Source: an uncultured delta proteobacterium
GTDB lineage: Bacteria; Myxococcota_A; Bradymonadia; Bradymonadales; Bradymonadaceae
Direction: 5' to 3'
Length of the DNA: 64,000 nucleotides
Assembly (NCBI GenBank): GCA_963697525.1
Contig: OY969087.1
Location: forward strand, 735,236-799,235
Position numbers and translations under genes: made by a program. Below the pieces are notes generated by a model, which did no database searches, was not told the origin of the DNA, and saw nothing but the letters and a program-made list of their open reading frames with translations. Positions within the stretch are counted from its first letter, which is position 1, and every line of letters starts with the position of its first letter. Shown here in pieces: positions 2,513 to 48,950 of this stretch.

Positions 2513-3346
2513 TCAAATCCCACCAATCTCATCAAACTTGATCTGACAGCCCGGCGCCACCTTGAAGGGATCGTCGCCCTCGCAATGGGTCATGATCTCC
2601 GCCCCCTCGTCGCCCACCACCAGGGTGTGCTCGAACTGCGCCGACAGGCTTCGGTCGCGGGTGATGGCGGTCCAATCGTCGTCGAGGACTTTGACCGGGT
2701 AGTCGCCCAGGTTGATCATCGGCTCGATGGTAAAGGCCATGCCCCGGCGGATGCGCATGCCGGTGTTGTGCTTGCCGAAGTGAGGCACCTCGGGAGCGCC
2801 GTGAAACGTGCGCCCGACGCCGTGGCCGATGAAGTCGCGCACCACCGAGAAGCCCTGGGCCTCGGCGTGCTCCTGGATGGCGGCGCCGATGTCGCCGATG
2901 CGCGCGCCGGGGCGCACCTCTTGGATGCCGCGCATCAGACATTGGGCGGTCACCTCCACGAGCTTGCGGGCCTCCTCGGAGACCTCGCCGACGAAGAACG
3001 TCGCGCAGGTATCCCCGTGGAAGCCGCCCACGATGGGGGTGACGTCGACCGAGATGATGTCGCCGTCGGCCAGGATTTGCTCCTCGTTGGGGATGCCGTG
3101 GCAAACGACCTCGTTGATGCTGGTGCAGATGCTTCGCGGAAATCCTTTGTAGCCCAGCGGAGCGTGGGTGGCGCCGCGCTCTTTGGCCCAGGCGTCGGCC
3201 TCGTCGTTGAGGTCCTGGGTGGAGATGCCCGGCTCGACCATCTTCCCGAGATGGCACAACAGCTCGGCGGCGACGCGCCCGGCGTCGCGCATCTTCTGGA
3301 TTTCGTCCTCGGAGAGGATCGTCAGTCGGCGGCGGCGTTTTCTCAT
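2513..3346 (-). CDS. map: Methionine aminopeptidase, type I
   Basis: MetAP-I motifs are present: ICHGIP, DIISVDV, GGFHGD, FIGHGVG, MAFTIEPM. The start is taken at the internal MRKRRRRLTIL of ORF 2513..3433. Confidence 0.9.
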   Translation of the reverse strand: MRKRRRRLTILSEDEIQKMRDAGRVAAELLCHLGKMVEPGISTQDLNDEADAWAKERGATHAPLGYKGFPRSICTSINEVVCHGIPNEEQILADGDIISVDVTPIVGGFHGDTCATFFVGEVSEEARKLVEVTAQCLMRGIQEVRPGARIGDIGAAIQEHAEAQGFSVVRDFIGHGVGRTFHGAPEVPHFGKHNTGMRIRRGMAFTIEPMINLGDYPVKVLDDDWTAITRDRSLSAQFEHTLVVGDEGAEIMTHCEGDDPFKVAPGCQIKFDEIGGI

Positions 3347-3429
3347 GGTGGGGCAGGGGTCTGGGGGTCCAGGGGTCGAGGAATCCGGGGTCCCACGGAC
3401 CCCGAAGTTGGATATAACACCGCTGTCGC

Positions 3430-4440
3430 TCAATACAAGCCCTGAAGCTCGGGCTTGAGCTCCCGGCTCATCAAATCGGAGACCGCCTCGCGGGTGGATT
3501 TATCCTCGTAGAGCACCTTGTAGACCTGCTCGCAGATGGGCATCTCCACGCCCAGCTCGCCGGCCAGGCTGTGCACGCTCTTGGAGGTCTTGACGCCCTC
3601 GGCGACCATATTCATCTCGCCCAAGATCTCCTCGAGCGAGTAGCCCTGGCCGAGCTTGAAGCCCACCGAGCGGTTGCGGCTCAAGCCCCCGGTGCAGGTG
3701 AGCACCAGGTCGCCCATGCCCGCCAGGCCCGACAGCGTCAGCGGGTTGGCGCCGATGCTCACCGCCAGCCGGCTCATCTCGTGCAGCCCGCGGGTGATCA
3801 TGCCGGCCATCGAATTCAGCCCTAACTCCATGCCGGCCACGGCGCCGGCGGCGATGGCAATGACGTTTTTGACGGCCCCGCCGATCTCCACCCCGATGAC
3901 GTCGGTGCTGGTATAGGCGCGAAACACATCGTTGCTGAACACCCGCTGGACGCGCTGGGCGAGCTTGTGATTGTAAGAGGCCACGGTCACCGCCGTGGGC
4001 TTCTTGGCAGCGACTTCTTTGGCAAAACTCGGCCCCGACAAGTACACCAAATACGGATGGCAGTACTCGGGCAAGACATCCTCGAGGATGTCGCTGACCA
4101 GCATCTGGGTTTCGTTTTCGATGCCCTTGGTGGCGCTGACAATGGCGGTCGCCGGCGGGATGATGTCGGCGACCCGGCTGATCACCGAGCGCAGCACGTG
4201 GCTGGGCACCACCGACACGATCATATCACTGTCGCTGACCACCGACTCCAGATCGCAGGTCGCCACCAGGTTGTCGGGCAACTCGAAGCCCGGCAAATAC
4301 TCGGTATTCTCGTGCTTCTTGTTGATGATCGCCGGCAACGGCTTTTCATGCACCCACACCAGCACGTCGTGGCCGTTTTCGGCCAGTAGTTTCGCCAGGG
4401 CCGTGCCCCACGATCCGCCTCCGATGACGCCGATATTCAT
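3430..4440 (-). CDS. gpsA: NAD(P)H-dependent glycerol-3-phosphate dehydrogenase
   Basis: N-terminal Rossmann motif IGVIGGGSWGTALA, GpsA core motifs GVEIGGAVKNVIAIAAG and MVAEGVKT, and length 336 aa. Confidence 0.9.
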   Translation of the reverse strand: MNIGVIGGGSWGTALAKLLAENGHDVLVWVHEKPLPAIINKKHENTEYLPGFELPDNLVATCDLESVVSDSDMIVSVVPSHVLRSVISRVADIIPPATAIVSATKGIENETQMLVSDILEDVLPEYCHPYLVYLSGPSFAKEVAAKKPTAVTVASYNHKLAQRVQRVFSNDVFRAYTSTDVIGVEIGGAVKNVIAIAAGAVAGMELGLNSMAGMITRGLHEMSRLAVSIGANPLTLSGLAGMGDLVLTCTGGLSRNRSVGFKLGQGYSLEEILGEMNMVAEGVKTSKSVHSLAGELGVEMPICEQVYKVLYEDKSTREAVSDLMSRELKPELQGLY

Positions 4441-4640: not shown

Positions 4641-5146
4641 CGGCTGCGCCGCCGGAGCATGCGCAACGTCTCCGCGGGATGTCCAAACACCTCGTGCAGC
4701 CGGCGGTTGGCGTCGCGCATCTCCTGGACGAGGTCGTCGGCGATGGCGTCGACCAACACGAACGCCGCCGGGCGGCGCGCCTCGAAGAGGTCGGCAAATG
4801 CCTCGCGGGTCAGGCGCAGCACCTGGCTTCGCTCCAGCGGGGTGCCCGCGCTGCCGTGCGGCCACGGGTAGACCAGGGACGACAGCGTCATCAGCGAGCC
4901 CGGCTCGGTGATCTGGTCGCGGCGTTGGCCGTCGGGCTGGACGCGGTAGCTGATCTCGACGCGCCCGGCCAACAGAATATAGGCCGCGTCTTTGACATCA
5001 CCAGGCGCCCATAACGCCTGGCCGGGCATGACCGTCAGGTGTTCGCCGGCGTCGACGAGCTCGGCGAGGTCGGCGCGCTCCAGCCCGGACAAGAGCCCCT
5101 GCTCGGCGAGGATGTCGACATCTTGGGTTGCGTCTGCCATGGACAA
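4637..5146 (-). CDS. Cyclic-nucleotide-binding (cNMP/CAP-family) domain protein
   Basis: cNMP-binding beta-roll signature: GQALWAPGDVKDAAYILLAGRVEI ... GSLMTLSSLV. 169 aa. Confidence 0.65.
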   Translation of the reverse strand: MSMADATQDVDILAEQGLLSGLERADLAELVDAGEHLTVMPGQALWAPGDVKDAAYILLAGRVEISYRVQPDGQRRDQITEPGSLMTLSSLVYPWPHGSAGTPLERSQVLRLTREAFADLFEARRPAAFVLVDAIADDLVQEMRDANRRLHEVFGHPAETLRMLRRRSR

Positions 5147-5919: not shown

Positions 5920-7269
5920 TCAAAAATCGTCGATCTTGTCGACCAACTCCGGCCGGTCGATGAATGGATTGCGCGAGTGCTGGAAGTTGTAGACCGCCTG
6001 GTTGCGCACCCGCTCGGGCCCGTCGACCGGGTCCTGGGTATTCCACTGGCGCAGCACCTGCTCCTCGAAGTCGGGGATATGCTTGTTGTACATCACCGCG
6101 AAGTAGAACAGCGCGCGGGCGACGTTGCCCTTGTGGACGTCGCGCGGCTCGAAGCGCACCGCGCCGGTGGCGTCCTCGCCGAGCTGCGAGCCCCCCTGCG
6201 ACCAGGACACATTGCCGGTGACGATGCCGAAGTAGTTATTCGAGCGGCGCTGGTTGGCCTCGGCGGTCGCCGGGAACAGGTGGTGCAGGTCGGACTTGGC
6301 CGGCTCGACCTGGGCGCCCTGGCTCTGCGGCCAGGTATGCTCGGCGTTGAACCCCTGCTGGTAGGCGTCGTCGGCGTTGCTGGTGGTGATGGTCACCCCG
6401 GTGTACACGCCGGTGACCTTGCCGCCGTGGTTGTCCACGGTGCTGAACATATAGTCGCGCGCCTGGCTGTACGAGTAGGTGATGTGGCCCTGGTGGTCGG
6501 CGCGAAGGGCGTCTTCCAGCGCGCCGTTGGTCAGCCCGGCGTAGGGGTCGTTGCCGGCCTGGGGGTCGCAGGCGTCGCCCAGCCCGTCGCCGTCACTGTC
6601 GAGCTGGTCGGGGTTGGGCTCGCTGACGCAGTTGTCCAGCGAGTCGTTGACCCCGTCGTTATCGGCGTCGCTGGCGTCGGCGCACGGCCCGCTCTTGCAC
6701 TCCAGGGTGAACTGGAAGTGGCCGTCGACATCCGAGAAATTCTGCAACGCCAGCTTGAAGTGGCCGCCGTTGTAAAACTCCCAGCCCGCGTCGAGCTGGC
6801 TCTCGTTGTAGGGGATATGAGCGTCGGTATCTCCCTGCGGGTTGCCCCACACCAGGGCGTCGGTCTGGCTGTCCGAAAAGATCGACACCGACGGGTTCCA
6901 CGACGGATCACCCACGATGCGCAGCCAGATGGTCACCCGGTCGTTCTGGTTGGCCAACAGGTTGAGGTCGATCTCACCCTGGGCGGGGATGATCCCCTCG
7001 AACTCGGCGCCGGCGGTAGTGATCTCGTCGGGGAGGTTTTGGGACCCGACGTCCGACGCCGCGTCCGCCCCCGCATCGGCGCCCGACGACACGGTGTCAG
7101 ACACCGTGTCGGCCCCGGCATCAGCGGTGATCCTCGCATCCGTCCCCCCGCTGTCGTTCTGGGTGACGCCGCCCCCACCGGTGTCGGTCTTGCCGTTGGT
7201 GGCGTCTGCAGAACAGGCGGCGAGGACGAGAGAAGTGGCGAGGGCGACGAGGTACGAACGATGCGTCAT
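5920..7269 (-). CDS. Secreted lipoprotein: thrombospondin-type-3 (DxDxDGxxD) calcium-binding repeats fused to an Endonuclease-I (EndA/NucM-family) extracellular nuclease domain
   Basis: Lipobox LVLAACS. TSP3 repeats DADNDGVNDSLDNC and DSDGDGLGDACD. C-terminal AEHTWPQS ... DLHHLFP ... NQRRSNNYFG resemble Endonuclease_1 motifs. Confidence 0.6.
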   Translation of the reverse strand: MTHRSYLVALATSLVLAACSADATNGKTDTGGGGVTQNDSGGTDARITADAGADTVSDTVSSGADAGADAASDVGSQNLPDEITTAGAEFEGIIPAQGEIDLNLLANQNDRVTIWLRIVGDPSWNPSVSIFSDSQTDALVWGNPQGDTDAHIPYNESQLDAGWEFYNGGHFKLALQNFSDVDGHFQFTLECKSGPCADASDADNDGVNDSLDNCVSEPNPDQLDSDGDGLGDACDPQAGNDPYAGLTNGALEDALRADHQGHITYSYSQARDYMFSTVDNHGGKVTGVYTGVTITTSNADDAYQQGFNAEHTWPQSQGAQVEPAKSDLHHLFPATAEANQRRSNNYFGIVTGNVSWSQGGSQLGEDATGAVRFEPRDVHKGNVARALFYFAVMYNKHIPDFEEQVLRQWNTQDPVDGPERVRNQAVYNFQHSRNPFIDRPELVDKIDDF

Positions 7270-9288: not shown

Positions 9289-10845
9289 TCAGAGCTTCAA
9301 TCGAGTGCGAAGCTCGTCCTCCAACGGGTTGTAATAATCCGGCGCCCGCTCGTACACGCCGTCGAGGCCCTTGCCGCCGTCCTTGGGCCGAAAAACGTCG
9401 GCAAAGGTGCCGGCGGCGAGCGTCTCGAACAGCCCCTCGTCGCGCACGTTCTCCAACAGCTCGGTCGCCTCGGCGAGCACGGTCTGGGCGCGGGTCTGGA
9501 TGATGCCGCCCTCCTTGTACTGGACCTCGTCACCCAGGGCGCGGGCGTTGTTCATGACGTACTGGGCGTTTTCCAACGCCAGGTAGCGATCGCCCATATG
9601 CGGGGTGTGCATCGCCTCGGTCATCATGCCCAGAAGCTGGATGCCCTGTTTGGACCAGGCGCCGATGAGGTTGAACAACGCGTCCTGGATGTGACCGCGA
9701 AAGACGTTGCCGGTCATATACTTGGTGGGTGGCATATACTTGAGCGGCGCGTCCGGGAAGATCTCGCGGGCCATCTCGGCCTGGGCGAGCTCGAGCAAAA
9801 AGCCGTTTTCGATGGCCGGGTTCATCTCGAAGGCGTGGCCCAGCCCCATCTGCTCGGCGGGCAGGCCGCTGCGCAGGGCGAATTGCTCGTTGATGAACTG
9901 GCTGGCCAGGACCGTATGGGCGGCGTCGACGGCGTCGGCGGTGGTCAGATAGTTGTCCTCGCCGGTGTTGATGACCACCCCGGCGTAGGCGTTGATCATA
10001 CGGCTGAAGTATTGGTCGACGAAGGTGCGCTGGGGGTTGATGTCGCGAAACAAGATCCCGTACAGCGCGTCGTTGAGCATGACGTCGAGGCGCTCGAGGG
10101 CGCCCATGGCGGCGATCTCGGGCATGCACAGCCCGCTGCAGTAGTTGCACAGCCGGATGTAGCGGCCCAACTCCTCGCCGACCTCGTCGAGGCCCTCGCG
10201 CATGATCCGGAAATTCGCCTGGGTGGCGTAGGTGCCGCCGAAGCCCTCGGTGGTGGGCCCGTAGGGCACGTAATCGAGCAGGCTCTGGCCGGTCGAGCGG
10301 ATCACCGCGATGATGTCGGCGCCCTGGCGCGCGGCGGTGCGCGCCTGGACGACGTCCTCGTAGATATTACCGGTGGCGACGATGACGTAGTGCAGCGGCT
10401 GGGGGCGCTCTTCGGAGCGCTGCAGGCGCCGGTCACGCTCGGCGACGGTGGCTGCGATGTGATCGGCGGCATCCGCGGCCAGCTCCTGGCCGACCTCGCG
10501 CACCCGGGCCTCGTCGAATTGGGGCAACTCGGCCAGGCGCAGATCCCCCGAGGCCACAGCCTCGGCGATGGTCTGTGGCTCCCGGTTGGTCTGCAACATC
10601 GCCCGCGCCACCAGGCGCGTGACCCCCTCTCCGACCAGCCCGGCCTCGGCGGCCGCGTCCACCACCACGTTGGCCAGCGGGATATCGTCGGCGTCCACCC
10701 CGTCGATCCCCATCAAGCGCAGCACCGTGCGCTCGACCGCCACGGTCGTGCGCGCCCGGATGAACGCGTCCATCTCATCGGCGATCTGCGCGGCCGCCTG
10801 GCGCCCCCGCGCGATCATCTCGGCATCGAGACCCAGCTTCGACAT
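9289..10845 (-). CDS. kamD: Lysine 5,6-aminomutase alpha subunit (KamD family)
   Basis: 518 aa with long conserved blocks recalled from clostridial KamD: YVIVATGNIYED, IRSTGQSLLDYVPYG, TEGFGGTYATQ, IRLCNYCSGLCMPEIAAMGA, INTGEDNYLTTADA, LGHAFEM, APLKYMPPTK. Confidence 0.8.
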   Translation of the reverse strand: MSKLGLDAEMIARGRQAAAQIADEMDAFIRARTTVAVERTVLRLMGIDGVDADDIPLANVVVDAAAEAGLVGEGVTRLVARAMLQTNREPQTIAEAVASGDLRLAELPQFDEARVREVGQELAADAADHIAATVAERDRRLQRSEERPQPLHYVIVATGNIYEDVVQARTAARQGADIIAVIRSTGQSLLDYVPYGPTTEGFGGTYATQANFRIMREGLDEVGEELGRYIRLCNYCSGLCMPEIAAMGALERLDVMLNDALYGILFRDINPQRTFVDQYFSRMINAYAGVVINTGEDNYLTTADAVDAAHTVLASQFINEQFALRSGLPAEQMGLGHAFEMNPAIENGFLLELAQAEMAREIFPDAPLKYMPPTKYMTGNVFRGHIQDALFNLIGAWSKQGIQLLGMMTEAMHTPHMGDRYLALENAQYVMNNARALGDEVQYKEGGIIQTRAQTVLAEATELLENVRDEGLFETLAAGTFADVFRPKDGGKGLDGVYERAPDYYNPLEDELRTRLKL

Positions 10846-10939
10846 CAGTCCTACTCCTGCACCAATCCCACATGATCGTCACCGTGCTCTCTGTGACATT
10901 GAAGCGCATCGGTTGGCAAGTCGGAAGGTTCGTCCCATA

Positions 10940-12370
10940 CCGCGACCAAACGGGTGTCAGACACCGCCCCAAATGGAGTGTCAGACACCGTAAGGGGCAG
11001 CTAGCATGCGGGTTTTCGAACAATGCCGGTCGTGCGAAACATCCGCGGGAGAAGAATTTGATCGGATTTGGAAACAGAACGCACGCCAAAAACGGAGGTG
11101 GCGGCCGACTAAGGTATGTACACCTGTGCGTTGGGTGATTCGGCGAAGGGACAGGCGCTGGAAAGGCACACCAGTGCGCTCAAACGCTGCCCGGACGGGA
11201 GTGTTCGGAGTTTCTTGGCGTGTTGTGTTACGGCCCGGCGGGTATCGCGCTTAGGCGAGGTCTTCCTCGCGCGGCTCGGGCGCGCCGACGCACTCGCGGT
11301 GGCCCGGCGGGATGGTGCCGTTGGGAAATTCGAGGTCGGTCTTGCCGTCCCTCCACTTGTCGGCGGCCTGTTTGTAGAGGTCGCGGACCTCCCAATACGT
11401 CGTTGTGTACTCCTCGCGAAGCTTCGGGTCGGTCGTGTGGCACAGCGGACACGGAGAGCTTTCGGAGTCTTTCGGGCGGTCGTACCAGTTCTGCTCGAGG
11501 ATTTTATCGACGCCCACGCACCCGCTTTTGCGGTGCTCGGCCAGGTGCTCGGCGTGGTCGCGAAGCTCCTCTAAGACCTTTTGGTTGTACGCCTCGTCGC
11601 TCAAATCCTTCCACATGGGCAGCTTGGCCATCTCGAGCTCGTAGTCGACCATGGCGCGGCGCTCGGCCTCGGCGTGGTCGATGTCTTTTCGGCGAAGCCG
11701 CCAGTACTCTTTTTTGTTGACGCGCTGTCCCACAAGCGGCGTTGCCGACTCGTGGAGGTCCCAGGAGGACAGCCCCGGCCAGAACTTGGGATGGGCGACC
11801 AGGTTGGACTCGCAGGGGTTACACACCGTGTAGCGAAGTTTGTTCAACAGCTCGTCGTCGTCGAGGATCGGCGAGCACTTGTAGCGGCTCTCGAAGAACG
11901 AGCCCGAGCGGCCCCAGTGGGCGTTTAGTTGCTTGGCGAGCTCGGTGTCGAGGAGCTGCATGAACTTCTGAATCTGACAGGAGTGCGAGCCGACCATCAG
12001 GTGGAAGTGGTTGGACATGAACACAAACGCGTAGATATCGACGTCGAACTTGTCGGCGGCGTAGGCGAGCACGTTGGCGATGATGGTGTTGACGTCCTTG
12101 CCGGGGCGAAAGAAGTAGCGCTGCTGCAGGCAGCGGATGGTGATGAAATAAATGATACCGGGTTCGAAATGACGCAGTCGATTTCCCATTGGGGTGGCTC
12201 CATAGGTTCGAGGTGATCGTTAATCCTCTCATTATGGTTTTCGGCAAAAAGGGGCGAATCGTTGCGTGATCGGGCAAAGTTTTTTTGCGAAGGGGGCCAT
12301 TGGCGGAGGAGTGCGATCGCGCGCTGAGGCGCATAGATGCTGGGTTGTGACGGTGTCTGACACCGTTTTT
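10940..12370. mobile_element. IS200/IS605- or RAYT-like element: HUH transposase gene flanked by GGTGTC(A/T)GACACC palindromes
   Basis: The palindrome sits at 10946–10959 and 10979–10992 (downstream) and 12350–12363 (upstream), each next to a C4/G4–A/T tract. It brackets the Y1-transposase-like CDS. Confidence 0.5.
11251..12189 (-). CDS. HUH Y1-transposase-like protein (IS200/IS605 TnpA / REP-associated tyrosine transposase-like) with a C-terminal extension
   Basis: HuH motif SNHFHLMV preceded by the IYFITIRC beta-strand, and the downstream catalytic-Tyr region FFESRYKC. C-terminal 150 aa carries a CPLCH Zn-finger-like motif. Confidence 0.55.
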   Translation of the reverse strand: MGNRLRHFEPGIIYFITIRCLQQRYFFRPGKDVNTIIANVLAYAADKFDVDIYAFVFMSNHFHLMVGSHSCQIQKFMQLLDTELAKQLNAHWGRSGSFFESRYKCSPILDDDELLNKLRYTVCNPCESNLVAHPKFWPGLSSWDLHESATPLVGQRVNKKEYWRLRRKDIDHAEAERRAMVDYELEMAKLPMWKDLSDEAYNQKVLEELRDHAEHLAEHRKSGCVGVDKILEQNWYDRPKDSESSPCPLCHTTDPKLREEYTTTYWEVRDLYKQAADKWRDGKTDLEFPNGTIPPGHRECVGAPEPREEDLA

Positions 12371-12618
12371 TGGGGCGGCGGGGTGGGGGGTGTTGTCTGC
12401 GGGATGCTGTTTGGTGATGGAGTCTGATTCCGCGGTGGATGCGGACACCGCAGTAGATACGTTTTTTTCAATATGGTAGGTTGGCAAGCACATACAACCT
12501 CTTTTGGGGCGGAACCGGCTGTCATACACCCGGTGGTGCGTCCGCGGTAGAGGTCAACTTGGTCCGACTCACTCACACTCATGGCGCTGAGCCGCTCGAA
12601 GCGACCTCGGAAGGAGAC

Positions 12619-13194
12619 ACGATGAACATGCCCCACCCATCAAACCACAATCCATACGCCGCCCCGGAGTCGATCGTCGACGAGGACCGCTCGTTCCAAC
12701 CGGATCCGTGGGCGACGCGCCCGTTGGCCACCCGGATGAGCCGGCTGGGCGCGGCGTTCGTCGACGGCCTCGCGCTCCTCGCGGCGATGCTGCCGTTTAT
12801 CGTGGTCGCCGGCATCGGCGGGGCGGCCAGAGCGCCCAAGCAGGCCCTGGCGGGCGTGGGTGGGCTGGCGCTGGTGGTATGCCTGTTGGCCCTGGGCGGC
12901 TACAATCTGTACCGGCTGCACACCCACGGTCAGACCATCGGCAAGCAGTTGCTGGGCATCCAGATCGTGCGAAGCGACCTGCAAACCCAGGCGTCGCTGG
13001 GGCGCATCATCGGGCTGCGCGTCGTGCCGCTGTGGCTGGTGGGCATGATCCCGTTTCTGGGACCGCTGCTCCAGTTGGCCGACCCGCTGTTCATCTTCAG
13101 CGACTCCCAGCAGTGCCTCCACGACCTGATCGCCGACACCAACGTGGTTGCCGGCAGCGAGCCGCTTTCGGCCTCGAGCAACGCCGGCTGGTAA
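12619..13194 (+). CDS. RDD-family membrane protein
   Basis: RDD-type topology: TM helices, a conserved R..D.D region, and LHDLIADT near the C-terminus. First gene of the overlapped operon. Confidence 0.65.
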   Translation, partial: TMNMPHPSNHNPYAAPESIVDEDRSFQPDPWATRPLATRMSRLGAAFVDGLALLAAMLPFIVVAGIGGAARAPKQALAGVGGLALVVCLLALGGYNLYRLHTHGQTIGKQLLGIQIVRSDLQTQASLGRIIGLRVVPLWLVGMIPFLGPLLQLADPLFIFSDSQQCLHDLIADTNVVAGSEPLSASSNAGW

Positions 13195-26778: not shown

Positions 26779-27402
26779 ATGACGACCAAAACCTCCGACG
26801 ACCACCACGGCCGCGACGAGCTCATCGCCGCGGCCTCCCAACTCTTCGCCGACCGCGGCTACACGGGCACGACGACCACCGCCATCGCCCGGCGCGCCGG
26901 CGTCTCCCAACCCCTGCTGTACCACCACTTCGGCTCCAAAAAGGGCCTGTGGCGCGCGGTCATCGACACGCTGTTCGGCCAGCTCAAAGACGAGCTCGAT
27001 CGCGTCACCCACGAGCTCGCCAAGATGCCCCGCCCCCAGCGGCTCGCCGAGCTGCTGCGCGCCTTCGTGCGCTTCAGCGGGCACCACCCCGAGCTCGCCA
27101 GGCTCATCCGCACCGAAAGCGGCGGCGGCGGCGACGCCTTCGACGACTTATACGGCCGCTGGCTCGAAGACCTGGTCAGCTTCTTCAACGGCGAACTCAC
27201 CGCCGCCCACGACGACGATACGCTGCGCCCGATCGACCCCACCTGCCTGTATTTCATCATCGTGGGCGCGGCCACCGAGCCGTTCGTCCAGCCCGAGATC
27301 GCCCGGCGCAACTTCGGCCTCGATCCCACCGACGACGGCTTCATCGACCGCTACGCCGACGCCATGGTCGACGCGCTGTTGCGCGGCGTGCTCGCTGGCT
27401 AG
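26779..27402 (+). CDS. TetR/AcrR-family transcriptional regulator
   Basis: The N-terminal HTH YTGTTTTAIARRAGVSQPLLYHHFGSKKGLW is a TetR_N signature. Confidence 0.85.
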   Translation: MTTKTSDDHHGRDELIAAASQLFADRGYTGTTTTAIARRAGVSQPLLYHHFGSKKGLWRAVIDTLFGQLKDELDRVTHELAKMPRPQRLAELLRAFVRFSGHHPELARLIRTESGGGGDAFDDLYGRWLEDLVSFFNGELTAAHDDDTLRPIDPTCLYFIIVGAATEPFVQPEIARRNFGLDPTDDGFIDRYADAMVDALLRGVLAG

Positions 27403-27409
27403 AACACCA

Positions 27410-27625
27410 CTCCTTCGGCATCTTGGCCTCGTTCGCCTTTCCTTCGGTGCGTGGGCATCTTGGCCTCGTTCGCCTTTCCTTCGGTGCGTGGGCATCTTGG
27501 CCTCGTTCGCCTTTCCTTCGGTGCGTGGGCATCTTGGCCTCGTTCGCCTTTCCTTCGGTGCGTGGGCATCTTGGCCTCGTTCGCCTTTCCTTCGGTGCGT
27601 GGGCATCTTGCCCTCGTTAGCCGAA
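27410..27625. repeat. 37-bp tandem array (about 5.8 copies): tcggtgcgtgggcatcttggcctcgttcgcctttcct
   Basis: Direct reading. Contiguous identical units with no spacers. Lies between the convergent stops of the TetR gene and the CYP102 remnant. Confidence 0.9.
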
Positions 27626-30013
27626 GACGTCCGCCACGTAACGCCCATCGGCCTCCAGGGCCTCCAGCCAGGCCTTGGCGTCGGCGTCGGTGCAGCCGGT
27701 TCGCTCCTGGTGGATGCGCGCGAGCGTATCGCGCACGGCGGGAGCCATGCGCTGGCCGTCGCCGCAGACGTAGACGTGGGCGCCGTTGTCGAGCAACGCG
27801 CCGACGCGATCGCGCTCGGCCCACAGGCGGTGTTGGACGAAGGTGATGTCGCCGTCGGGTTTTTTGAAAAAAGCCGGGTGGACCTCGACGAGGCCGGCCT
27901 CTTCGAAGGCGGCGAGTTCGTCGCGATACAGGAAGTCGACCTCGGGGTGGTCGCAGCCGAAGAAGAGCGCGGCCGCGCCGAGGTCGTCGCCGGCTTCTTG
28001 GCGAGCGGCGCGCTCCTGCAAAAAGCCTCGGAAGGGGGCGAGCGTGCGGCTGTCGGCGGGCGGGTGAAAGTCGGGCCCGGAGGGGCGCACGGTGACCTCG
28101 ACGTGCTCGCCGGGGCGACGGCGGGCGAGGAAGTTCGAGCAGGTGCCGCGGTAGCGGCCGTGGCCCGACCAGGCGGGGGCGTTGACGACGGCGACGGTGA
28201 GCGCGCAGCGCGTGTCGTCGACCGAGGGCGACGAGGAGATGGAGTATTGGCGCGGGCGCATCGGCGGCAGCATCTCCAAAAACTCGGCAAAGCCGAGGGT
28301 GCATGAAGCGGTCTGCTCGAGGAGGTCGAGCAGGCTGACATTCGTGTCGAGCACCTCGGCGCGGTAGCGCTCGGGGTCGTTGGCCAGGGCCTGTAGGCGC
28401 TGCTTTTCGGGCGGGCACGGGGTGAGCTCCGCCAGACGGCCGAGGTCGCGGCGGGTGGCCGGTTGGCCGAGCTCGACGTAGCGGCCCAGGAGCTCGGCGA
28501 CGGCGATGGGTCGGCCGGTCGGCAGCGCGCTGGTCTCGGCGCGGGCGCTCGACAGGCGGATGAGTTCGTCGAGTTCGAAGCCGAAACGCTCGGCAGCGCG
28601 CGCGACGCGCTCGGGGTCGTTCTCGGGGAGCACCGCCAGGTAGTCGCCGACCTCGTAGCTCAGCCCGTCGGGCAGCTCCAGCTCGACGTGGCGCTTCGAG
28701 CGCCCCAGCGGCGAGGACATGTCGACGAGCTCGCGGTTTTCGAGCACCGTCGCCAGGCGGGTGCCGTGGGCGTCGACCAGCGGGTCGGCGGCGGCGTCGA
28801 GGCGCTCGATCTCGTAGAGCGGCCCGTCGTCGACCGCCTCGACGGTGACGTCGAATTCGTCTTCGAGCGTCGGCCACACCGGCTCGTACCAGGCGTCGAA
28901 GTCCCCGAAGAAGTCGCCACGCGCGTCGGCCTCGCCGCGCTCCATGAGGCGCTCGGCGCCGGCGCGGCTCAAGGCCTCGTCGACCCGGCGCGGCACCGCC
29001 TGGTAGGTCGCCGACCAGTCGCGGTTTCCGCAGCCAAAGACCGCGTAGCGCACGCCGTCGAGCGCGCCGGGCTCGAGTCCGTCCAGCCACTCACAGAACA
29101 CACGGGCGTTGTCCGGCGGCTCGCCGTTGTACGAGGCGGTGACCACGGTCAGCGCGCCGCCGGTGGGAAGGTCGCCGACGTGGTCGTCCATGGCGGCGAG
29201 CTCGGCGTCCCAGCCGCGCGCCTGGGCGTCGCCGGCGATGCGCCGGGCGAAGGCTTCGGCGGAGCCGGAGTTGGAGCCGTAGAGGACGAGCAGGGGCGTG
29301 CCGTGCGCGGCAGCGCTTGGCGCCTGCAGCGCGGGGCTTGGGGCTTGGCGCCTGCGGCGCGGGGCTTGGAGCGGAGCATCGGAGGAGCGCAGGCTTGGCG
29401 CGGAGGAGCGGGGGTGGGCCTGGATGTGGAGGGCGGCGGGCTTGAGGGTGAGCGTTTCCTTGATGTCGAGCTGGTAGTCGTCGACGTCGACGAGATCAAA
29501 GCGGCGAAGCATCATCGCGAGGACGAGCTTGGCCTCCTGCATGGCGAACGGGCGGCCAATGCAGGCGCGTTGGCCGCGGCCGAACGGCTTCCAGGCGTTG
29601 GCCGGGATCTGGTCGATGTGCTCGGGGGCGAAGCGCTCGGGATCGAAGCGCTCTGGATCGTTCCACACCGTCGGGTCGCGGTGGAGCATGGGGAGCAGCA
29701 CGAACAGCTCCTCGCCGGCTTCGACGCCGTAGCGCCCGCCAATGGTGGTGTCTTCCTTGGGGTACAGCGCGTAGGCCGGCGCCGTGGGCCACAGCCGCAA
29801 CGATTCGCGAAGCACCTGGTCGATGTAGCCCAGCTCGCGCAGGTGCTCGAAGCGCGGCGCGTCGGCGCCGAGCACGCGGTCGGCTTCCTCCTGGGCGCGG
29901 GCGAGCACCTCGGGGTGCTGAAGGAGTTGGTAGATCGTAAACGAGAGCAGGCCGCTGGTCTTCCCGCGCTCGCCTACGGCGCCACCACGCCTAAGCCTTG
30001 TTAAACCCGACAA
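27617..30013 (-). pseudogene. 5'-truncated CYP102-family (P450 BM3-like) P450–NADPH-reductase fusion gene; the first ~250 aa of the heme domain are missing
   Basis: The ORF begins mid I-helix (GLLSFTIYQLLQHPEV). It contains the heme-loop FGRGQRACIGRPFA, the flavodoxin LLVLYGSNSGSAE and FAD/NADPH domains. No P450 N-terminus exists in any frame upstream, and the next gene starts at 30107. Confidence 0.7.
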
Positions 30014-46790: not shown

Positions 46791-46923
46791 AACGGCTCCT
46801 GCGTGTTGGGGAGTTGGGAAGTCGGTGAAAGCGTAGTCCCATTTCGGCGCCCAGGAAAGCCTGCCCGGCCACAAGAACCGACCGCTCCGAAGAATGACCC
46901 ACATCCGCCACGAGAGCCTCAAC

Positions 46924-47069
46924 CCCCGGACTCAAGTCCGGGGCTATTTGGGGGTCGACGTATTGGCAATTGGCTGCTCTCCGTGGCCTCGAAAACCCAC
47001 CTCGTTCCAAAGAAGCAGCCCCCCAATCCTTACGCAGTTCCAACAATAGCCCCGGACTTCAGTCCGGGG
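46924..47069. repeat. MITE/REP-like element copy A carrying two CCCCGGACT(C/T)(A/C)AGTCCGGGG hairpins
   Basis: Direct reading. The core 46945–47020 is the reverse complement of 48827–48922. Confidence 0.8.
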
Positions 47070-47165
47070 TTGAACGATGGCCCAGCCCGCCTCGTCCGCT
47101 TGAGTCAGCCTCGCCGTCTGGCTACTATCGTCGGCACGTGCCACCACATGACTGGAGCCGACCCA

Positions 47166-47740
47166 TGATGTACCGCGTGTCCGCCGTACTTCTCGCCCTC
47201 GCCGCAGTTCTGTTTGTGACCGGCTGCGGGTCCAACCAATGTGACTTCCACGAGCGCTGCTCGGGCAACGTGCGCCAGGTGTGCGGCGACGGGCCGGACC
47301 AGATGGTGGGGCGCGAGGTCCACGAGTTTCCCTGCGCCGATCCCAACCCGGTGTGCGTCGAGATCAACGACGGCAGCTCCACCGCCGCCCAGTGCGTGCA
47401 GGCCGCCGACAGCACCTGCGAGGCGTCGACCTTCGCGCAGAGCTGCCAGGACCAGACGGCCATTCGCTGCCAGAACGGCTATACGGTCGCCGAGGACTGC
47501 AGCTCCGACGGGCCCGACTGCGCCATGGTCGACGGCAACGCGCGCTGCCTGATGTCCCCGGCGACCCCGTGCACGGCCGATTTTCAGGAGCATTGCGACG
47601 GCGACGTGCGGGTGTATTGCCGCAACCCCAGCGACGGCTACGTCACGCGCGAGGACTGCACGGCGCAGTCCCGGGTGTGCCGCACCCAAACCTCCGGCAG
47701 CACCGGCAGCACCTATTGCATGAGCACGGCCAAGCTCTGA
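47166..47740 (+). CDS. Cys-rich secreted lipoprotein (hypothetical)
   Basis: Lipobox LFVTGCGS; 20 Cys in 190 aa with a repeated C..G..C..C pattern. Confidence 0.5.
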
Positions 47741-47836
47741 GCGCGCCCGCCTTCGGGCCGCCGTTGACATCGCCCCGGCGCGTATTAGGTTGCTCCCGCC
47801 GGATACCACACCAACCGCGCACAAATGGGAGCACAG

Positions 47837-48823
47837 ATGAAGACACGCATGCTGGGAAATGACGGCCTCGAGGTCTCCGCCATCGGCCTGGGCTGCATGG
47901 GGATGAGCGACTTTTACGGCACCGCCGATGAGGAGCGCTCCATCGAGACCATCCACCGGGCCCTGGACCTGGGGATCAACTTTTTGGACACCGCCGACAT
48001 GTACGGGCCGTTTACCAATGAGAAGCTCGTGGGCAAGGCCATCGCCGACCGGCGCGACAAGGTCGTGCTGGCGACCAAATTCGGCATCCAGCGAAGCGAA
48101 GACGGCACGAGTCGACGCATCAACGGCCGCCCGGACTATGTGCACCATGCCTGCGACGCCTCGCTGGAGCGCCTGGATGTCGACCACATCGACCTGTACT
48201 ACCTGCACCGCGTCGACCCGGACGTGCCCATCGAGGAGACCGTCGGGGCGATGGCCGAGCTGGTCGAGGCCGGCAAGGTGCGCCACCTGGGCATCTCCGA
48301 GGCCAGCCCGGACACCCTTCGGCGCGCCCACGACACCCACGAGCTGACCGCCCTGCAGACCGAATACTCCGTGTGGAGCCGGTTTGCCGAGGACGAGATC
48401 TTGGTCACCGTGCGCGAGCTGGGCATCGGGTTCGTCGCCTACTCGCCGCTGGGCCGCGGCTTTCTGACCGGGCGCTTCTCGCGCCCCGAGGATATCCCCG
48501 AGGGCGACTGGCGGCGCAACAATCCCCGCTTTCAGGGCGACAACTTCTACAAAAACCTCGAGCTCGTCGAGCATATGCGCGCGCTTGCCGCCAAAAAGGA
48601 CGTCACCGCCGCCCAGCTCGCCATCGCCTGGGTGCTCCACCAGGGCGACGACATCGTGCCCATCCCCGGCACCACCAGCCCCGACCACCTGCAGGACAAC
48701 GTCGACGCCGCCAGCGTCGAGCTCAGCGACGCGGAGCTCGCCGAGATCGACGAGATGTTGCCGCCCGGAGCGGCCGCGGGCACGCGGTATCCGGAGGCGG
48801 GGATGGGGACGGTGGGCCGGTGA
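47837..48823 (+). CDS. Aldo/keto reductase (Tas/YghZ-like)
   Basis: LGCMGMS, the catalytic tetrad context (DTADMYG ... LATKFG ... YYLHR), HLGISEA and PIPGT. 329 aa. Confidence 0.9.
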
Positions 48824-48826
48824 GGA

Positions 48827-48950
48827 GGCTGCTTCTTTGGAACCAGGTGGGTTTTCGAGGCCACGGAGAGCAGCCAATTGCCAACACGCCGACCCTCAAA
48901 TTCCAAAGCCGTTCCCCAAATAGCCCCGGACTTGAGTCCGGGGGTTGAGG
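48827..48950. repeat. MITE/REP-like element copy B (inverted relative to copy A) with a CCCCGGACTTGAGTCCGGGGG hairpin
   Basis: Direct reading. About 90% identical to the reverse complement of copy A, with a 20-bp insertion. Confidence 0.8.

Follow-up and report, generated by a model that had tools for sequence, protein, structure and literature searches.

The stretch analysed here (the window: 64 kb of contig OY969087.1 from an uncultured member of the Bradymonadaceae) contains, at 11251..12189 on the minus strand, the gene of a 312-aa Y1 HUH nuclease/transposase of class 2, the class of the repetitive extragenic palindrome (REP)-associated tyrosine transposases (RAYTs), as identified from its open reading frame (ORF), profile matches, a family alignment and a fold model. 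The gene is bracketed by palindromic repeats, with which it forms a 1.43-kb element of a single minus-strand gene and repeat ends (~10946-12376), consisting of a gene-distal, downstream end (10946..10992), a non-coding spacer from the stop codon to the downstream repeat (10993..11250, minus strand, 258 bp), the gene itself, a 160-bp leader (12190..12349, minus strand) and a gene-proximal, upstream end (12350..12376). The element is flanked by a kamD-like gene (9289-10845) and an RDD gene (from ~12481), and no other copy of the family gene lies in the window.

The initial annotation, made from the DNA letters, had described a 312-aa product with an NHFHLMV motif, and the translated ORF bears this out, with NHFHLMV at N60-V66, ESRY at 100-103 and CPLCH at 247-251. 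The proposed check with the Y1_Tnp hidden Markov model (PF01797) gave a match over residues 20-109 with 36.6 bits (cut-off 23; E 5.8e-9). The protein has a TnpA fold in which the HUH motif, H61-F-H63, is combined with one catalytic tyrosine on the following helix. Across the aligned family H61, H63 and Y120 do not vary, N124 and P125 are kept in 90% or more of the members, and the Y motif reads Y120-T-V-C-N124-P125, i.e., Y---NP, which is the signature of class 2 (TnpAREP-type) enzymes according to Quentin et al. 2018 (PMC6006769). The tyrosine of ESRY, previously proposed as the catalytic residue, does not qualify, as Y103 varies among relatives and is F in P0002, P0003 and others. Considering that Y120, located within RYTVCNPCESNLV and aligned with the YIYINP Tyr motif of 4ER8, is invariant while Y103 is replaced by F in several members, the alignment identifies Y120 as the catalytic tyrosine. 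The NCBIfam model REP_Tyr_transpos (NF047646, the RAYT equivalog) aligns end to end with the protein (residues 5-138 vs model positions 3-144 of 146) and matches 25 of 25 family members tested, with a best E-value of 2.7e-20; the score of the window protein, 63.9 bits, stays under the curated cut-off of 80. For the NCBIfam model transpos_IS200 (NF033573) the score is 16.5 bits vs a cut-off of 55. The best PDB sequence match of the family profile is 4ER8, E. coli TnpAREP, with the HUH and Tyr motifs in register and the Tyr region of the family, RYTlcNPvesnLV, aligned with YIYINPVKHGWV, and an AlphaFold model built from 25 sequences reached a predicted local distance difference test score (pLDDT) of 92.4 and a predicted template modelling score (pTM) of 0.89. 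PADLOC gave no match, PHROGs just a weak generic transposase match, and no homologue was returned when only the N-terminal 145 aa served as query.

Beyond this core, the protein carries a family-specific C-terminal domain (residues ~150-312), which wraps the catalytic core in the AlphaFold model. The C-terminal extension of 150 aa with a CPLCH motif noted earlier is real and measures about 160 aa, but CPLCH does not represent a CxxC metal site: most relatives have Arg in place of C247, which led to the rejection of a zinc-finger reading, whereas P248 and H251 never vary in the family alignment and C250 is retained at 90% or more. A second conserved C-terminal motif is F288-P-x-G-T-I-P-P-G296 (FPxGTIPPG). 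Searching the C-terminal region alone against 1.84 billion representatives yielded 515 clusters at E <=1e-3, and in full-length matches it is located at ~140-305 of proteins of 300-340 aa, a constant position which indicates that its fusion to the Y1 core is fixed. The domain matched no Pfam family and no PDB entry.

The palindromes that the initial annotation had placed on both sides of the gene are found there and form part of the ends of the element: GGTGTCAGACACC at 10953-10965 and, with one mismatch, AGTGTCAGACACC at 10977-10989 on the downstream side, and ACGGTGTCTGACACCGT at 12350-12366 upstream. Equally real are the CCCCAAA / TTTGGGG tracts beside them (GCCCCAAAT at 10966-10974, TTTTTGGGGC at 12367-12376). 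As a 13-mer with at most one mismatch the palindrome occurs four times in the 64 kb vs 0.05 times in dinucleotide shuffles, an 80-fold excess, and none of 100 shuffles reached four. Based on sequence, pattern statistics and inverted-repeat alignment, the downstream end (10946..10992) comprises two tandem tail-plus-palindrome units on the plus strand, CCAAAC-GGGTGTCAGACACCG followed by CCCCAAATG-GAGTGTCAGACACCGT, of which the inner one (10966-10992) is the inverted-repeat partner of 12350-12376 and the outer one (10946-10965) a partial tandem reiteration. The upstream end, composed of palindrome ACGGTGTCTGACACCGT and tail TTTTTGGGGC, reads GCCCCAAAAAACGGTGTCAGACACCGT in gene orientation (reverse complement) and matches the downstream inner unit, which in gene orientation is ACGGTGTCTGACACTCCATTTGGGGC. 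Both ends align as imperfect inverted repeats of ~45 bp reaching inward through CAGC...ATGCG, and each repeat is built of an outward-facing, C-rich/A-rich tail (CCCCAAA), a palindrome of 13-17 bp (CGGTGTC-A/T-GACACCG) and an inner CAGC...ATGCG block. As single-stranded DNA (ssDNA) the upstream palindrome would fold into a hairpin of -6.9 kcal/mol (z -2.6 to -3.3) and the downstream doublet into either two small hairpins or one long hairpin (-11.8 to -13 kcal/mol). The earlier suggestion of IS200/IS605 subterminal hairpins has to be given up, as the ends are ~45-bp imperfect inverted repeats and not distinct left and right hairpins.

The fourth copy of the palindrome, absent from the initial annotation, is a solo copy located 3.8 kb from the element, CGACACGGTGTCAGACACCGTGTCG at 7087..7111, a perfect 25-bp palindrome with 12-bp arms (-16.8 kcal/mol as ssDNA), which lies within a 449-aa lipoprotein-like ORF (5920..7269, minus strand). 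It is read in frame, as DTVSDTVS, in a low-complexity linker of this ORF's product, and may have arisen by insertion of the repeat into the gene or by chance, from a tandem repeat of DTVS.

Inside the ends, the leader contains two blocks conserved at the DNA level. Block 1 (~12225-12268, minus strand), CACGCAACGATT-N8-9-TT(C/T)TGCCGA(A/T)AACC(A/G)TA(A/G)TGAG, spans CACGCAACGATT through TGCCGAAAACC and is also present at the loci of seven relatives (L001, L002, L003, L011, L084, L085 and L086; L numbers designate loci of relatives throughout), so that the leader DNA is conserved though the proteins of those relatives are only 50-59% identical. Block 2 (~12320-12345), CAGC-N4-5-(C)ATGCGCC, doubles as the inner part of the inverted repeat, and a GGAG lies 9 nt ahead of the ATG. 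A conserved RNA fold of the leader was considered and rejected, since RNAalifold found three pairs with no compensatory change, indicating that the leader is conserved as a sequence and not as an RNA fold. The sigma-70 scan detected no consensus site in the leader, its sole promoter-like match being inside the ORF, and Rfam gave no match at E <=1 in 10700-12700, which includes the downstream spacer. The inner ~25 bp of this spacer (AAAACCCGCATGCTAGCTG) extend the inverted repeat and the remainder is poorly conserved. The distance from stop codon to repeat is ~245-300 bp in the window and at L001, L003, L021, L027, L031 and L025, and 344-475 bp at L020, L030 and L042.

The 90%-identity cluster of the window protein holds 11 distinct full-length 312-aa variants that are 93-98% identical and retain the catalytic residues throughout. 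Each variant is recorded on a contig of 7,504,895 bp, the same size as the contig carrying the window's own protein, and they are taken to be at least 11 intact paralogues in the source genome. Such a number of near-identical copies is IS-like (IS, insertion sequence) and sets the family apart from RAYTs, for which one copy is typical (PMC5581495), and from class 2 in general, described as low copy (PMC6006769). For the source genome the copy number is thereby known at the protein level; sharp common ends were seen only in other genomes.

Scanning GTDB species genomes with a family profile returned 183 relatives, often with several copies per genome; the same contig collection scanned with the single window protein gave no relative. 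The hosts are Bradymonadales (Lujinxingia), Myxococcota (Enhygromyxa, Nannocystaceae, Polyangia), Thermoanaerobaculia/Acidobacteriota, Planctomycetota and Ca. Multivoradales. Among the relatives with 50-59% protein identity, L001, L002, L003, L085 and L086 have repeats of the CGGTG(C/T)C-A/T-G(G/A)CACCG type ~160-180 bp upstream of the start, and L001, L002, L003 and L086 have the same type ~245-300 bp downstream of the stop as well, L085 being a 1,394-bp contig on which the upstream copy alone is visible. A true inverted repeat should have its central base flipped between the two sides, which is what L001 and L003 show (A upstream, T downstream), and at L003 the inverted repeat reaches ~65-80 bp. 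Across loci, the GGTG(C/T)C core was found upstream in forward orientation at 27 of 62 and downstream in reverse orientation at 26 of 62, vs 14-21% of control windows. As a universal feature the palindrome core was rejected, distant sub-lineages having other ends, e.g., AACCGTCCGGGGTT and GGACCGGACTGAGAGTC.

Furthermore, DNA homology between paralogues within a genome extends over the gene, ~50-390 bp of upstream and at most ~300 bp of downstream sequence and goes no further, so that in these other genomes the paralogue units are 1.2-1.5 kb long and end at equivalent inverted repeats. Examples are Enhygromyxa salina (L068/L071, 93% identity over 1284 bp), HK-STAS-MYXO-50 (L030/L032/L042, 89-94% over ~1.2 kb) and Old_saline.mb.39 (L077/L079/L083, 85-88% over 1.4-1.5 kb, with exact ends at AATAACCGTCCGGGGTTA / TAACCCCGGACGGTT), and in OH_PFB_202 and GY13CH the homology ends at repeats that either contain a hairpin or read GGTGCCAGACG. 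End-repeats are also found alone, kilobases away from the gene, with six in L062 (7.7 kb), one in L003 at 1216 and one in L011 at 3973. Two homologues, L084 (1399 bp) and L085 (1394 bp), are themselves ~1.4-kb metagenome contigs, which we infer to be what collapsed multicopy repeats give in short-read assemblies.

Several further observations were made at the loci of relatives. In many of them the outer arm of the end repeat plus ~5 nt is tandemly reiterated two to four times just outside the ends in an iteron-like manner (L001 6209-6300; L003 4250-4300 and 5685-5735; L005 6013-6060; L017 2915-3060; L030 ~6090-6130; L042 ~6085-6100), with units such as GCACCGTGTCGGCA (three to four times) and GGCACCGTTTTTC (three times); this could reflect repeated nick-and-rejoin events or replication slippage. 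In OH_PFB_202 the flanks of the end hairpins are inverted and the 5-nt loop TTTCG is identical on the same strand at both ends (L063 ~1189-1225 and ~2395-2427; L065 ~4849-4885 and ~6050-6082), which hints at strand-specific hairpin recognition as in IS200/IS605, unlike the true inverted repeat of the window clade. The 3.35-Mb Ca. Multivoradales contig CBDFIJ010000004.1 has at least seven family loci, some of which comprise a pair of diverged gene copies, either in tandem or separated by a few kb (L040, 5001-5867 and ~6123-6860; L047, 5001 and ~10089; L061, ~2980-3660 and 5001), and an unrelated 1.4-kb repeat, 99.7-99.9% identical, adjoins several of these loci.

Taking these data together, we consider it likely that ~10946-12376 is one copy of an IS-like, probably autonomous, RAYT-type transposable element, which is neither a classical IS200/IS605 element nor a classical single-copy REP-RAYT unit. 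The class and fold of the protein, the repeat architecture, the multicopy state and the preservation of this architecture in relatives are demonstrated by our analysis, as is, for other genomes, the end of paralogue homology at equivalent repeats. Drawing an analogy to IS608 TnpA and E. coli TnpAREP, we would expect the enzyme, probably in dimeric form, to recognise the palindromes as hairpins extruded on ssDNA, e.g., on the lagging-strand template, whereupon the HUH-bound Mg2+ and Y120 would nick beside the palindromes and generate a 5'-phosphotyrosine intermediate. Rejoining of the strands, on the same analogy, would excise or copy the whole repeat-gene-repeat unit, which would be inserted elsewhere, or occasionally a solo repeat. 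The C-terminal domain probably adds recognition of the ends or tails, or controls oligomerisation.

A number of points weigh against this interpretation. The ends of the element in the window were set by the inverted repeat and by analogy with other genomes rather than by alignment of copies from its own genome, and neither a target-site signature nor an empty site was found for it; moreover, the assignment of the 11 variants to one contig is based on equal size and not on an identifier. In other genomes, much of the family consists of paralogues that have diverged to 65-78% DNA identity, which would fit old duplications too. In addition, a tblastn search of 72,556 plasmids found no full-length member and only homologues of the N-terminal domain with 26-35% identity, i.e., no direct sign of horizontal vehicles. 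More tentatively, and with a probability that we place somewhat below even, the family might be a so far unnamed and currently active IS family, in which a class 2 Y1 enzyme is combined with a new C-terminal domain without a match among solved structures, and which represents an autonomous relative of the 'domesticated' RAYTs whose gene mobilises both itself and the palindromic ends and, in addition, seeds solo palindromes.

Three other explanations were weighed. The locus might be a classical REP-RAYT pair (REPtron), as the initial annotation had offered as one option, in which a domesticated, non-self-mobilising RAYT generates and maintains a population of extragenic palindromes across the genome, those beside the gene being no more than its closest REPs. 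In favour of this are the Y---NP motif of class 2, TnpAREP as the closest match in fold, the inverted palindromes flanking the gene, including a doublet able to form a long, REPIN-like hairpin, the existence of solo copies (7087-7111 in the window, six in L062) and the name RayT given to relatives by JGI. However, a genome with at least 11 intact and nearly identical copies stands against single-copy RAYTs (PMC5581495) and a low-copy class 2 (PMC6006769), the protein scores under the NCBIfam equivalog cut-off (63.9 vs 80 bits), the gene and both repeats are co-duplicated as a sharp-ended unit in other genomes, the remaining 62 kb of the window hold one solo palindrome, which is intragenic, and a GTAG-type 5' tetranucleotide is absent, so that a classical REP-RAYT unit is unlikely here. 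The palindromes and the strongly conserved leader block could also belong to an expanded but non-mobile cellular gene family, e.g., with an ssDNA-processing or regulatory role, where the upstream palindrome would be an autoregulatory operator and the downstream palindromes transcription stops. A palindrome-to-start distance of ~-160 to -180 in the window and at L001-L004, L008, L030, L032 and L072, a domain architecture fixed in 515 clusters and the lack of plasmid-borne members are in line with such a family, yet the same repeat is inverted on both sides, its sequence changes along with the protein lineage, paralogue homology stops at the repeats, the downstream hairpins have no T-run and solo repeats are located far from any copy, which makes this explanation quite improbable.

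We regard it as the least probable of all that the element is an ordinary IS200/IS605 insertion sequence with an IS200-type TnpA and distinct left and right subterminal hairpins on one strand. The Pfam Y1_Tnp match, the multicopy, IS-like behaviour, the small size with one ORF and hairpin-forming ends, and the OH_PFB_202 hairpin loop, identical at the two ends when read on one strand, are features it would account for. Against it, the tyrosine motif is Y---NP and not the Y---Q of subclass 1.1, transpos_IS200 reaches 16.5 bits vs its cut-off of 55, the window, L001 and L003 have true inverted repeats with a flipped central base, the protein has twice the length of an IS200 TnpA plus an extra domain, and tnpB is lacking. 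Overall, an IS-like, RAYT-type transposable element remains the interpretation that we favour.

With regard to other repeats, the initial annotation had called the window unusually rich in REP-like hairpins, which holds only weakly: counting perfect palindromes with arms of at least 8 bp and a loop of at most 6, there are 31 in the window vs 9-18 in ten Markov-1 shuffles, but they are heterogeneous and mostly unrelated to each other. Besides the element palindrome there is one other small recurring hairpin family, CCCCGGACTnnAGTCCGGGG, with three copies in 46924-48943. In its longer form, (CCCC)AAATAG-CCCCGGACTnnAGTCCGGGG-GTTGAGG, it lies at 46915-46955, 47041-47075 and 48915-48950, one copy being inverted; its 5' tail CCCCAAAT resembles the tail of the element ends, its stem resembles palindromes beside Enhygromyxa homologues (CCGGACTCAGAGTCCGG in L068), and no cognate Y1 gene for it was found within the window. 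Because an outward CCCCAAA tail is common to the element and this second hairpin family (46915-48950), the data hint that a tail-plus-hairpin rule, and not one hairpin sequence, is what gets mobilised. Apart from these, the window contains a near-perfect tandem array at 27380-27659 with ~6-7 copies of a 37-bp unit, GGCATCTTGGCCTCGTTCGCCTTTCCTTCGGTGCGTG, the period of which is not a multiple of three, and an exact 88-bp tandem duplication at 517-692 with the hairpin GCCAAGCGTTTTCCCGCTTGGC in each copy.

The textbook example of domestication among bacterial transposases is provided by RAYTs, being single copy, vertically inherited and without self-mobilisation. If the favoured interpretation is true, a multicopy, sharply bounded RAYT-type unit would offer a natural system for studying how REP/REPIN-generating enzymes originate from selfish elements, or revert to them, as well as the way in which a Y1 enzyme copes with symmetric, inverted ends. 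For mutagenesis, concrete targets are the conserved C-terminal domain, with its PLCH and FPxGTIPPG motifs, and the leader block, which is conserved as well. The family, with at least 515 clusters at 50% identity, is now labelled RayT or left unnamed in annotations, and is likely to break short-read assemblies.

Among named systems, the element comes closest to the TIRYT/TIRtron described by Di Nocera, De Gregorio & Rocco 2013 (PMC3733652), in which TIR stands for terminal inverted repeat and which was equated with TnpAY1 subclass 2.1 by Quentin et al. 2018 (PMC6006769) and corresponds to Bertels group 1. In both, a RAYT-like Y1 gene is flanked by TIRs at roughly fixed distances, some TIRs show partial or complete self-complementarity, a few additional copies of some are present in the genome, the HUH motif is of the NH[YF]H type and the tyrosine motif is Y---NP. 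By raw position matches, the TIRYT TIR motif GGGG[AT][CG]A[CG] (GGGGWSAS) agrees with GGTGTCAG of the window in 7 of 8 positions and with GGTGCCAG of relatives in 6 of 8. However, TIRYTs are ~238 aa long with a C-terminal helix-turn-helix (HTH) / Bac_DnaA_C-like domain, which the window protein does not have, and are low copy, whereas the window family has at least 11 copies; the strings GTIPPG, SNHFH, IPPGH and NHFHL are absent from the accessible text of the 2013 TIRYT supplements (PMC3733652).

The E. coli TnpAREP / RAYT with its REP-BIME (bacterial interspersed mosaic element; REPtron, 4ER8) is similar in that the HUH and Tyr motifs align and inverted palindromic repeats flank the gene, and differs in that the window protein is 14% identical to it, has the extra 160-aa domain, is multicopy and falls under the NCBIfam cut-off; in addition, the window element is devoid of a GTAG-tagged REP, and the 64 kb of genome that could be read gave no evidence of hundreds of REPs. 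With IS200/IS605 (IS608, ISDra2; subclass 1.1) it shares the Y1 HUH chemistry, the small multicopy format, the hairpin-forming ends and a likely single-strand mechanism, but it has Y---NP instead of Y---Q, true inverted repeats, no tnpB and a protein of twice the length. TnpAY1 subclass 2.3 (Chromatiales/Alteromonadales; PMC6006769) resembles the window family as a class 2 group with a median length of 325 aa, a C-terminal domain of its own, several copies per genome and no classical REPs. Yet subclass 2.3 enzymes have NHYH, YVDLNP and a 55-aa insertion between beta3 and alphaC, whereas the window protein has an HUH-to-Tyr spacing of 57 aa without such an insertion, and its family is found in Bradymonadales, Myxococcota, Acidobacteriota and Planctomycetota. 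Overall, we file the element as a RAYT/TIRYT-type Y1 element, outside both IS200/IS605 and the canonical RAYT equivalog.

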